A DNA stretch of 64,000 nucleotides. Source: Myxococcota bacterium. Lineage in GTDB: Bacteria; Myxococcota_A; SURF-8; G963663525. Under the pieces are notes generated by a model, which worked only from the letters and a program-made list of their open reading frames with translations, did no database searches and was not told the DNA's origin. Positions 33,701 through 38,423 of the stretch are shown here, one piece after another. The stretch spans positions 160,001 through 224,000 of the forward strand of contig CAXXVK010000060.1 in assembly GCA_963676915.2 (NCBI GenBank), in the 5' to 3' direction. Within the stretch, counting starts at the first letter, position 1. The number at the start of each line of letters is the position of its first letter. Position numbers and translations under genes: made by a program.

Positions 33701-33740
33701 AAAACGCGCCGGGTGGATCAATCCTCCGGCGCGTTTTTTT
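33701..33740. terminator. Terminator overlapping the stop of the FadL-like gene
   Basis: AAAACGCGCCGG...CCGGCGCGTTTT stem flanked by A/T runs. Confidence 0.7.
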
Positions 33741-35083
33741 CGTCCTGTTGTGGTTTGAAGCCACGGAAGAATTCGCCCATCGTGGGATATTCTTCTCGGT
33801 CCTGCTCTTCCTTTTTCATGGCTTTGCGCGTGGCGCTCTCGGTGTCGTCGTTGTAGCGGATGCTTCCGGCGTACAGCAATCCAAGGTACCATTCTTTCAC
33901 ACCCAACCTGCGTTCCTGCACCACTTCGTGTCCGCCACCCATGGCCGCATTCAACCCCAGCATCGAGGTCGTAAAGGCGTTTTCCCAGCCGAACGCCGCC
34001 GTAATTCCGTAAAAATCGATTGCGGTAGGCATCCCTTCGCGGCTACGCGAGGGTTTGGGGGCCGAACTGAAATCGGTATACATCCCGGCACGCAGAAAAT
34101 ACCAGCGTCGAAAACGTTGCTCGAATCCCAGGTTGACGTTGCCGATGGCATCGAGCTTCACCGGTCCGTCCGCCAACTCCCGGTTGGTCTGGTCGTGAAT
34201 GGTCACGTCCGCAACGAAGGTCGTATTCAAAAACGGCTGAAACGCGACGCCCGCCCGAAAGGAAAACGGCATTTCGATGGATTCCGAAATCGTCCGGTTG
34301 GAAATGTAGATCGGCTCGTCTTGAGGATCGTTGGTGGTGTGGATCGACCGAAATCTTGTTTTCGACCGGGCCGGGAAGGCCGAACGAATCCTCAGTCCGG
34401 CCTGTATCATCGGATGAGGACGTATCCAGACACCCAGAATCGGCGTAAAACCGATGAAGGCACGCTCGGCCACGTTGACGGTATGATCGAAACGTCCGTT
34501 GAGTTCCGTCAGCTCCGAGCGATTTTCGTACTCGGTCCGATAGTAGGCATAGAGTGTCGCGCCAACGGCGAACGCCGGATGCAGCCGGTAGGCCACCGAC
34601 GGTCCGGCGAACATTTCCTGACTTTTGTTGGAAATGTCGATGTAGAGATAAGGTTGTTCCTTCTCGGTCACGAATTGCGCCGACTGCTCGTTGCTTTCCG
34701 GGACCGCGACGGTAAACGCCGCCGTCCAGTCCCCGAAGCGCATCAGGGTTCCCGTGGTCGCACCGATGACGTTGAACGCGCTCTGGGTCAGGTCTTTGCC
34801 GTCCCGATAGTTTTCCACGGTCCGATAGCGTAACTGGTAGATCGACAGGCTCAATGATAGCGAATCGTAACGGGCATTGGCCATTCCGGCGGGATTGTAG
34901 TACGCACCGGAAGGATCGTCCGAAATGGCAGTGAAAGCTCCACCCATCCCGGCGGCGCGTTCGCCGATCAGGCTATCACTATAATGATAGGGGTCTGCGA
35001 AAGCCGCCTGCAATCCGAGGAATAAACCACAGACAGCCAGCACTAGCCCGATGCAACGACGAGTGACCCGGCCCCTTCGCGGC

Positions 35084-35091
<8 letters not shown>
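33718..35091 (-). CDS. OmpP1/FadL-family outer-membrane transporter
   Basis: Signal peptide ending AAFA, GERAAGMGGAFTAISDDPSGAYYNPAG plug motif, beta-strands; start overlaps the upstream stop. Confidence 0.82.
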
Positions 35092-36469
<1,378 letters not shown>

Positions 36470-36563
36470 ACAGTCCTCAACCTAGAATCCAAAAAAAAAC
36501 ATTTGTCATGTTCGATTGCTCTCTTAGGAAAGCAAGAAAACGCGAAAGATGCAAGGAGTTTTC

Positions 36564-36617
36564 GCGAAAAAATTTCGCTCTCTTGACGTTTATTTTTCGC
36601 AAAGCGAAATATTTTCC
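36564..36617. promoter_or_regulatory. Candidate enhancer (UAS) boxes
   Basis: Palindrome GCGAAA-aaa-TTTCGC (36564-36578) and related GCGAAA-tat-TTTCC (36604-36617), 40 bp apart, upstream of a sigma54 promoter. Confidence 0.5.
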
Positions 36618-36744
36618 TTCTTTAGGGTTTATTTGTATCTAACAGTTATTTAACATTTGGTTTTAGAATCAAAAAAACTGTTTAATTACATATTGTTACG
36701 CTATTTATATTTGTTATTTTTTACTGTCCTTTGTGTATATCAGA

Positions 36745-36761
36745 TTGGTATTTTTTTTGCA
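36745..36761 (+). promoter_or_regulatory. Sigma54 (-24/-12) promoter
   Basis: TTGGTATTTTTTTTGCA: GG-N10-GC spacing, close to consensus YTGGCACG-N4-TTGCW. Confidence 0.7.
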
Positions 36762-36771
36762 CATCTTAAGT

Positions 36772-36902
36772 GCTGTTGAATCCCTCAAAAATCTCCCCGG
36801 ATTTTTGAGTCTTTGAGATCGGAGTGTGCCCCTACTTCGGTCTGGTTCGGAAAACTCCGAACACCCCCTGTGGCGAGAGTTCCCCCCTCTCGCCATTTTT
36901 TT
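36772..36902 (+). ncRNA. Candidate small RNA with four hairpins and C-rich loops
   Basis: Stems 36784-36809, 36816-36843 (2 G.U on + strand), 36845-36862, 36871-36895 + T7 terminator; no ATG-initiated ORF; starts at the expected +1 of the sigma54 promoter. Confidence 0.7.
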
Positions 36903-37223
36903 GATCTTTTCATTCGAGAGACGACTCTAATTCGTTAGAGAATCGCGTTCTTTTTGGTTACAATTATATCCTCATGGGGTTATGTTCTCGTGTCAATGCA
37001 AGTCATTCATTTATTTTTATCGGAATATTTTTTTGGAAAATAAATGGATTCCAAAGAAATTTTCTTTATAATGTATCCAGGTAGGTAAGATTGTTTCATG
37101 ATTCGTTGTATATGGAACATGAACTCCCAATGAAAACCGTTGTTTCACAAACACTTAGCCTCCAGCATTCGCTGAATGCCACAAGAAAACGATAGAGACG
37201 GACTGATTATTTCTGGAGTAACG

Positions 37224-38423
37224 ATGCAGCACACCCCCGTTGAAATCGACGCTTTTCCCGAAGCATGGCGTTCCTTGGCCGACGCCAACGCATCTCCTCT
37301 GATTTTCACCGACGAAAAAGGTCATCTGCTTTACGGGAATCCCTCGTGGCAGGCGTGGAGCCATGACCTTCGAACCACTTTGCTTGATGTTTCTGCAAAA
37401 CTTCTCCAGCATGAGTTTTCTCAAACCCGTTCCATTTTGGAAAACCTGACGATTCCGAATCTCGGTGCTATCGCCTGTACCTGCGAATGGCTTGAAGATC
37501 GAGGCAAACGTTTCGGGATGCTGCGTTTCGAGCCGGAGAACCAACCGGTCCTCGAACCCGGAAAAGTAGCCATCGACCGGGAAATGGCCGCCCGCTGGGC
37601 GTTGTTGTCCGCTCGCATGAACAGCGTGGCCGATGTGGCCGCCGGGTTGGCGCACGAAATCAACAACCCTCTGGGCGGTCTGTTGCAAACGGTACAGCTT
37701 TTATCGCGTAACCTGACCATCGATCACGAACGCACCCACGCCCAACTGGAAAAAATCGGATTTGCCGAGGACGAAATCACCAAGTTGGCAAAATACATCG
37801 AAGAACGCCAACTGCTTTATTTTCTTCAGATTATCGGCGAAAGCGGTGAGCGTGCCCGAGCGATGGTATCGTACATGGTCGAATTTTCCCGCCAGCGCCC
37901 GGCCGAGCATCACGAGGTAGATCTCGTCACGTTGGTAAAGCGCTGCATCGAGCTGGCCAAACTCGATACGGACATGCGTAAAATCTACCAATTCGCCCGG
38001 CTTCCCCTCGATATGACGGCCGATCCTACCTACATCGGTGGCGTTTGCATCGAACAACAAGCGAAATATGTATTCTTGCGCTCACTCAAGCGACACGCTG
38101 CCGGACTGCATGCCGCCACGCAGGAAAAGGATGCGTTTTTTCCCGAGTTGCGTCTCGATTTGAGCTATCGTGACGACCGGGCGGTGATCGTTTTCAGCGA
38201 CAACGGCCTGCCGCCCACACCCGAAGACATCCGCCTCGTCGAAGACGGTTCTCTGGATGCCGTATGGAGCACCGACGAGTCACGGTTCGATCTCGCCGTC
38301 AGTTCGTTTTTATGGCAATCCTTCAATCATGGTGGCTATACGTTGTCCGAAAACGAGCGAGGCGGCTGCACCACCGAACTGACCCTTCCGCGAAAAAACG
38401 GTCAATCGGCACATGTGGGGTAA
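37224..38423 (+). CDS. Histidine kinase-like protein with intact H-box and degenerate ATP-binding domain
   Basis: AAGLAHEINNPLGG; N-box reads YVFLRSLKRH; FSDNG retained; G2 replaced by SRFDLAVS; GGAG RBS before ATG 37224. Confidence 0.8.
   Translation: MQHTPVEIDAFPEAWRSLADANASPLIFTDEKGHLLYGNPSWQAWSHDLRTTLLDVSAKLLQHEFSQTRSILENLTIPNLGAIACTCEWLEDRGKRFGMLRFEPENQPVLEPGKVAIDREMAARWALLSARMNSVADVAAGLAHEINNPLGGLLQTVQLLSRNLTIDHERTHAQLEKIGFAEDEITKLAKYIEERQLLYFLQIIGESGERARAMVSYMVEFSRQRPAEHHEVDLVTLVKRCIELAKLDTDMRKIYQFARLPLDMTADPTYIGGVCIEQQAKYVFLRSLKRHAAGLHAATQEKDAFFPELRLDLSYRDDRAVIVFSDNGLPPTPEDIRLVEDGSLDAVWSTDESRFDLAVSSFLWQSFNHGGYTLSENERGGCTTELTLPRKNGQSAHVG

Follow-up and report, generated by a model that had tools for sequence, protein, structure and literature searches.

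The window analysed here is a stretch of 64,000 nucleotides (nt) of a Myxococcota bacterium (assembly GCA_963676915.2, contig CAXXVK010000060.1, positions 160,001 to 224,000 of the forward strand). Positions are those of the window throughout; G000 is the genome that carries it and G001 that of a species of the same genus. Between an NtrC-family response regulator gene and a histidine-kinase-like gene, positions 36772-36902 on the + strand hold a small RNA (sRNA) gene of about 131 nt with its own predicted promoter and terminator, which we are highly confident is a real RNA gene. Judged from sequence comparison, it is very probably a conserved sRNA gene, present across the class of the host and standing under a dedicated sigma-54 activator. 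The best reading is that of a new family of sigma-54-dependent, trans-acting sRNAs that would work without Hfq, as Pxr, RsaE and 6C do, with targets proposed by analogy. Taken in full, this explanation (dependence on sigma-54, control by the neighbouring activator, pairing in trans through runs of C without Hfq, and a family of its own) is held to be moderately probable.

The RNA gene, its predicted promoter and its putative activator

Four hairpins are predicted by RNAfold on the + strand of 36772-36905, with a minimum free energy of -51.3 kcal/mol and z = -5.50; none of 200 dinucleotide shuffles folds as well. The opposite strand folds worse (-45.0 kcal/mol, z = -2.81, equalled by 2 of 200 shuffles) and loses hairpin 2. 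In the same fold, runs of four to six C are exposed in three hairpin loops and in one linker. The 3' end consists of a GC-rich hairpin directly followed by a U-run, as in an intrinsic terminator (36870-36902), and a terminator was called at 36870-36896 in a consensus scan; the same scan gave no sigma-70-like promoter 5' of the RNA. The RNA is single-copy in the G000 genome.

A preliminary description of this DNA, made from its letters, had placed two palindromic boxes, a sigma-54 promoter, a start near 36772, four hairpins, a single-stranded linker and a U7 tail in this gap, and all of these were recovered at the positions it gave. Two details need correction. The G.U pairs of hairpin 2, described as two, are three in number, their presence and their strand asymmetry being as described; the loops are where they were said to be, and the strings written for them had also taken in closing bases.

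In the sigma-54 (-24/-12) promoter, GG stands at 36747-48 and GC at 36759-60, giving GG-N10-GC. The +1 at about 36772 was derived by setting the C of this GC as -12; both transcription and the exact 5' end of the RNA are predicted. The parts expected of an enhancer-dependent sigma-54 promoter are present: GG and GC 10 bp apart, rpoN (one copy in the G000 genome), and boxes 100-250 bp upstream.

The divergent gene encodes the putative activator, with Pfam matches to Response_reg (1.6e-27), Sigma54_activat (3.6e-69) and HTH_8 (1.5e-10). Its scores lie below every NCBIfam equivalog cut-off (best AtoC, 481.7 bits vs 714; LuxO, 354.5 vs 800; GlrR, 339.6 vs 763), and a search of a protein atlas with this protein returned generic NtrC clusters and nothing more specific. 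The sigma-54-like promoter pattern has 76 matches in the G000 genome. In the interval -260 to -90, 3 of these 76 have one or more box-like matches, vs 1 in a mirrored control window, and two GCGAAA-type boxes in that interval were found for the promoter of the RNA only. This uniqueness suggests the RNA as the main or only output of the two-component pathway; in terms of the box motif model, the sequences suggest that it is the main or only sigma-54 target of the activator. That the RNA would be driven by the divergent NtrC-family activator is considered likely.

The preliminary description had also pointed to a near-IHF site between boxes and promoter. The sequence is indeed there, as a 13-mer with one mismatch, and its significance on its own did not hold: the site carries little weight alone because seven such one-mismatch matches occur in 3166 bp (2.75 expected; 5 of 200 shuffles reach seven).

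Table 1 Positions of the predicted RNA, its control elements and neighbouring genes in the window, and of RNAs with the second loop motif at other loci. Empty cells, no entry.
Feature	Position	Strand	Remarks
Predicted small RNA	36772-36902	+	About 131 nt, inferred +1 to end of U7 tail
Hairpin 1	36784-36809	+	11 bp; loop CCCC at 36795-36798
Hairpin 2	36816-36843	+	11 bp; three G.U/U.G pairs; loop UGCCCC at 36827-36832
Hairpin 3	36845-36862	+	7 bp; loop AAAC, without C-run
Single-stranded CCCCC linker	36864-36868	+	
Hairpin 4, predicted intrinsic terminator	36870-36902	+	10 bp, 6 G-C pairs; loop UUCCCCC; U7 at 36896-36902
Predicted sigma-54 (-24/-12) promoter	36745-36761	+	TTGGTA-N6-TTGCA
Box 1, candidate activator site	36564-36578		Palindrome GCGAAA-N3-TTTCGC; about 208 bp 5' of predicted +1
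Box 2, candidate activator site	36604-36617		GCGAAA-N3-TTTCC; 40 bp past box 1
IHF-like site, weak	36636-36648	+	13-mer, one mismatch
NtrC-family response regulator gene, putative activator	35084-36469	-	Receiver, sigma-54 AAA+ and Fis-type helix-turn-helix domains
Sigma-70-like site	36936-36964		Between terminator and kinase-like gene; consensus scan
Histidine-kinase-like gene	37176-38423	+	Pfam HisKA 4.1e-08; neighbour, outside the conserved module
RNA with second loop motif	L048:900-1193	-	
RNA with second loop motif	L086:2432-2640	+	
RNA with second loop motif	L082:12725-12958	-	

A divergent module kept across the class

The class of the host, here identical with the order, is represented by 10 species genomes in four families. 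An ortholog of the activator is present in all 10 (55-90% identity), one of them being cut by a contig end; the 1400 nt divergent from each ortholog start were extracted, and the cut locus was fetched separately. Nine of the 10 genomes, which belong to three of the four families, have the same ordered divergent module: one or two boxes, one sigma-54 promoter, 128-294 nt of hairpins, and a terminator. In 9/10 loci a first box of the type GYGMAW-N3-WTKC occurs between -188 and -211 relative to the predicted start; a second box follows about 40 bp past the first in 3/10 loci (G000, G004, G005) and 29 bp past it in G007. Each of 9 upstream extracts contains a single match to the sigma-54 promoter pattern, always in the corresponding position, and G008 has one as well. 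Regions upstream of orthologous activators had been proposed in the preliminary description as the place to look for conservation, and the -24/-12 element and the hairpins are both conserved there in 9/10 genomes. Its claim of an independent sigma-54-driven sRNA tied to a divergent NtrC-family activator is strongly supported by this comparative evidence.

BLAST with the RNA matched 1 of 40 relatives, namely G001 of the same genus (84% identity). Between G000 and G001, identity is 89% in the promoter, 79% in the RNA, 70% in the boxes, 37% in the spacer and 45% in the downstream flank; the conserved islands coincide with the predicted functional parts.

The terminator-hairpin pattern has exactly one match in each of the six class genomes with that version of the terminator. 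In metagenomes it was found on 14 contigs, of which 2 hold further members of the family (one with activator, boxes and promoter; the other cut at its 5' end) and 12 hold ordinary terminators 3' of coding genes. A contig search with the activator protein gave only two class members among 39 loci. The next-closest relatives of the activator (L005, L006, L008, L012; Bradymonadales-labelled and unlabelled metagenome-assembled genomes) have 47-48% identity; they lie in the same orientation directly 3' of a histidine kinase gene, without a divergent sRNA, and probably represent a paralogous two-component system.

Conserved features of the RNAs

Eleven RNAs were compared, 9 from class genomes and 2 from metagenomes. 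Each was folded from the predicted +1 to the U-run, the terminator hairpin and U-run being set as 3' end in all 11. Members have 4 to 8 predicted hairpin loops and are 128-294 nt long. Stem sequences are almost wholly different between genera; the hairpins persist, and their loops keep C4-C7. Runs of at least four C number 40 across the 11 RNAs, with 34/40 in hairpin loops and 39/40 unpaired, and a run of at least four G occurs once. A C-run is present in 34 of the 63 predicted hairpin loops, and 8 of the 11 members have exactly three C-run loops. For two relatives, the RNAs gave z = -6.87 and -6.27.

The terminator stem GGCGAGAG/CUCUCGCC is common to 7/11 members. Compensated changes in it are seen in G004 (A-U to C-G) and in G006/G008, and G003 has an entirely different stem; these compensatory changes were read directly from the sequences. 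Between G000 and G001, 30 pairs were compared: 0 are broken, 1 has changed in a compensatory way and 2 on one side only. Of the 53 pairs compared between G006 and G008, likewise none is broken; 1 shows a compensatory change and 8 have changed on one side. Many such one-sided changes go via G.U, which is workable on the RNA strand only. Hairpin 3 differs in G001, where it has a 6-bp stem and another loop.

Two further motifs have a narrower distribution. One family shares a single-stranded 5' motif, CAUUGAAYC...UUUGCCCU, of which G000 has kept a part. RNAs of this same family also have a second loop motif, AGCAGUAUC or AGCUGUAUC (AGCWGUAUC), repeated on differing stems: four copies in G005, one in the metagenome member meta86, two exact copies plus near-copies in meta82, and none in G000. 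From their sequences, these repeats look like tandem duplication of a hairpin module of about 35 nt.

Proposed mode of action

According to the preferred explanation, sigma-54 RNA polymerase would sit at the -24/-12 promoter (36745-36761); the phosphorylated NtrC-family regulator would bind the palindromes about 205 and about 165 bp upstream, loop to the promoter and trigger firing; and transcription would stop at the GC-rich hairpin and U7. The RNA would then present its single-stranded runs of 4-6 C in three loops and a linker, and these would pair in trans, without Hfq, with G-rich stretches of messenger RNA (mRNA), e.g. Shine-Dalgarno-like GGGG(G). Pairing with G-rich mRNA is proposed by analogy to Pxr and to Gram-positive RNAs that have C-rich loops, and we give about an even chance to the RNA pairing with G-rich RNA. 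A Pfam search gave no match for Hfq in G000, the control having matched in 5 of 14 reference genomes; since the G000 genome is 90.8% complete, absence of Hfq is not proven by this result. The csrA gene is present in G000. Runs of G5 are commoner than those of C5 in the ribosome-binding windows of this genome (62 vs 22 of 7127), which is a generic feature.

Several results weigh against this explanation. When the five exposed segments were scanned for duplexes with 18153 start-codon windows of G000, no excess appeared, with 307 duplexes at or below -18 kcal/mol vs 371 in the reversed control, and 7-mer complements of the unpaired segments in the G000 ribosome-binding windows gave a ratio of 1.13 vs 1.16 in the reversed control; both scans are weak negatives because gene starts were crude, being based on open reading frames (ORFs), and because a single genome was used. 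The preliminary description had proposed repression of G-rich ribosome-binding sites; with no signal above the reversed controls in the two scans of G000, that proposal is plausible by analogy only. The sole outstanding site (G000:C21:15361-15378, L093) is perfectly complementary, over 16 nt, to the loop and 3' arm of the terminator; it lies in a 5' leader about 50 nt upstream of an alpha/beta-hydrolase-like gene and can itself form a small hairpin, and the complement is absent, as judged by eye, upstream of the G001 ortholog. The C-run counts given above overstate independent support because the 11 sequences are related. Finally, G002, the sole sampled species of one of the four families, is an exception to the module: it has an activator ortholog (55-58% identity) and a protein-coding gene in place of the RNA.

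The G002 locus (L050, G002:C7:87437-91615) has box-like half-sites and a weak sigma-54-like site without the -12 GC, directly 5' of a small lipoprotein-like gene; going by these sequences, a protein gene may be under the control of the same activator in G002. Feedback of the RNA on the mRNA of its own activator was also considered and was rejected, as nothing consistent was found in the leader (36470-36563); four consecutive C occur nowhere on the + strand of this leader, and the activator mRNA therefore has no G-run there.

A different role for the same loops is that of a decoy or sponge, in which the loop motifs would dock and sequester an RNA-binding protein of this Hfq-less lineage, in the style of CsrB/RsmZ with CsrA or CrcZ with Hfq/Crc. 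This possibility stays alive because genera differ widely in how many hairpin modules their RNAs have (4 to 8 loops, 128-294 nt) around constant loop motifs, and because the second motif recurs on differing stems in one family; the pairing scans without a target signal are in keeping with it, and CrcZ is likewise driven by sigma-54 and an NtrC-family protein beside the activator gene. The three C-run loops found in 8/11 members look, however, like a fixed architecture and not an expandable array. No protein that might bind the C-runs was identified; G000 does encode CsrA, but this protein recognises GGA, and the loops are without GGA. Known RNAs with multiple C-rich loops act by pairing, RsaE/RoxS among them. 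6C is described as binding multiple mRNAs via C-rich loops without RNA chaperones (PMC6486639), and IsrR as a pairing sRNA with C-rich loops (PMC9410917). We regard a decoy as unlikely on balance. If it were true, the C-runs would be a new motif and their partner a new protein, in a sequestration circuit of the Csr/Crc type under a two-component/sigma-54 switch.

Relation to Pxr and other known small RNAs

Searches against Rfam 15 gave no relevant match in 36000-37600 of the window (E<=10, Pxr included) or in the loci of 9 relatives; the matches obtained were weak and irrelevant (SOX2OT, snR84, mir-16) and all lay outside the RNA. The preliminary description had not recognised a known family in this sequence, and the Rfam result for the region and the relatives' loci agrees with it. 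No description of an RNA of this type in the lineage came out of a literature search.

As far as can be seen, the RNA works like Pxr of the myxobacteria. Pxr is described as having a sigma-54 promoter with an enhancer, as lying beside the NtrC-like regulator gene nla19/pxrR and as folding into three stem-loops, and a C-to-A change in the loop of the first (SL1) as causing loss of function (PMC5568312, PMC5684412); pxr lies 262 nt past the 3' end of nla19 (PMC5568312). No hfq homolog was found in myxobacteria according to the same literature (PMC5684412). In a further source the direct targets of Pxr are given as still unknown, and the Cystobacterineae are regarded as the group in which pxr arose (PMC11928866). 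In the Rfam consensus (RF01812), the SL1 loop is U followed by seven C.

The likeness thus extends to the promoter class with its upstream enhancer region (here palindromic boxes at about -205), to the adjacent NtrC-type regulator, to several stem-loops with a C-run loop, and to hfq, reported missing from myxobacteria (PMC5684412) and not found by Pfam in G000. It is these shared points, together with the C-run in an SL1 loop that is essential in Pxr, that would make the window RNA a highly diverged member of the Pxr family and not the founder of a separate one. The differences are those of arrangement and of build: pxr lies downstream of the 3' end of its regulator gene with a 262-nt gap, whereas the window RNA is divergent from the 5' end of its activator gene; Pxr has three stem-loops and one C-loop, whereas 4-8 hairpins of differing length and three or more C-loops are found here; and the window RNA belongs to a different, uncultured class. 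The Pxr model (gathering cut-off 80 bits) gave no match in the region (E<=10), in the G000 genome (E<=0.001) or in the loci of 9 relatives (E<=1), and membership in the Pxr family as modelled was rejected on this result and on the different gene order.

Pxr itself was not detected in the samples of the phylum. Its model matched 0 of 151 genomes, with a best score of 21.9 bits in 5 large genomes; these phylum-wide model searches are weak negatives because few candidates were scored and the control had no match above the cut-off. The SL1 21-mer of a published Pxr primer had 1 match, with 2 mismatches, in 301 genomes of the phylum, and the same match was returned in a repeat with 200 genomes; about 1.3 matches are expected by chance (own estimate). 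Deep kinship with Pxr is judged improbable. Were the RNA a deep relative of Pxr after all, the origin of Pxr-type control would move outside the fruiting myxobacteria.

Other sRNAs share part of the arrangement. The Qrr RNAs have sigma-54 promoters activated by an NtrC-family response regulator, qrr1 being divergent from luxO, and about four stem-loops; they need Hfq, and their conserved region is not known to consist of C-run loops. The window RNA is like them in its promoter, of the kind activated by NtrC-family proteins, in the divergent gene order and in having about four stem-loops. It differs in that its activator reaches 354.5 bits vs the LuxO cut-off of 800, that there is no Rfam match to Qrr, and that no Hfq was found in G000 whereas Qrr requires it. 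GlmY with GlrK/GlrR and CrcZ with CbrA/CbrB also have sigma-54 promoters and several activator sites far upstream, and lie beside the two-component genes that control them; both are decoys whose motifs are different. The window RNA has a kinase-like gene downstream of it, as glmY has glrK, but this neighbour is kept within the genus only, the activator scores 339.6 bits vs the GlrR cut-off of 763, and Rfam gave no match to GlmY/GlmZ or CrcZ.

With RsaE/RoxS, 6C and IsrR the window RNA shares several exposed C-rich loops on one small RNA. These RNAs belong to unrelated Gram-positive lineages and have no Rfam match here; unlike the window RNA as predicted, they are not known to be sigma-54 dependent or to be paired with a dedicated enhancer-binding protein.

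Neighbouring genes

No ATPase domain was called in the histidine-kinase-like gene downstream of the RNA (Pfam, E<=0.001). Its real start is possibly the second ATG, 48 nt inward, by the onset of similarity with G001. Beyond the activator, the ORF 33718-35322 (-), in its listed extent, overlaps the 3' end of the activator gene; Pfam gave no match for it, and it is conserved in G001 only (76% identity). A signal-peptide-like stretch inside it makes an internal true start probable. Neither the kinase nor the gene at the far side of the activator adjoins the module outside G000 and G001, i.e. outside the genus.

The preliminary description had named transcription into the kinase gene, with the RNA as its leader, as one of the findings that would overturn its proposal. 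A + strand ORF does begin 73-281 nt past the terminator in G000, G001, G004, G006 and G008, as a 5' leader or attenuator of a downstream gene would have it. The kinase is outside the conserved module, however, and so is the gene beyond the activator; the first long ORF past the terminator lies on the opposite strand, convergent, in 4/10 loci (G003, G005, G009 and one metagenome member); the RNA ends in a 10-bp GC-rich hairpin with U7; a sigma-70-like site lies between this terminator and the kinase; and the two species of the genus share 45% identity in the flank past the terminator. A leader is on these grounds very improbable. That the region should be an AT-rich intergenic sequence with structure by chance and a fortuitous promoter-like motif is hardly credible: consensus matches alone prove nothing, but the structure z-scores are -5.5 to -6.9, the ordered module recurs in 9/10 genomes of three of the four families despite complete turnover of stem sequence, and every pair stays intact in both comparisons made within a genus.

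Significance of the family

The RNA family is previously undescribed. An sRNA with a sigma-54 promoter beside its activator is of a known kind, and the mode of action put forward here would follow by analogy. To our knowledge, few sigma-54-dependent sRNAs are known, namely Qrr, Pxr, GlmY, CrcZ/CrcY and NrsZ; each of them is the main output of a signalling pathway. The present family adds a module of enhancer-binding protein and sRNA that has been kept across a class-level lineage known from 10 species genomes. Since Rfam 15 does not include it, the family could yield a covariance model, made from its members, of use in genome annotation. It also offers a comparison for Pxr, with which it shares the same kind of C-run loop, and its eleven diverged natural variants, which keep only the loops, point to the functionally important part of the RNA.

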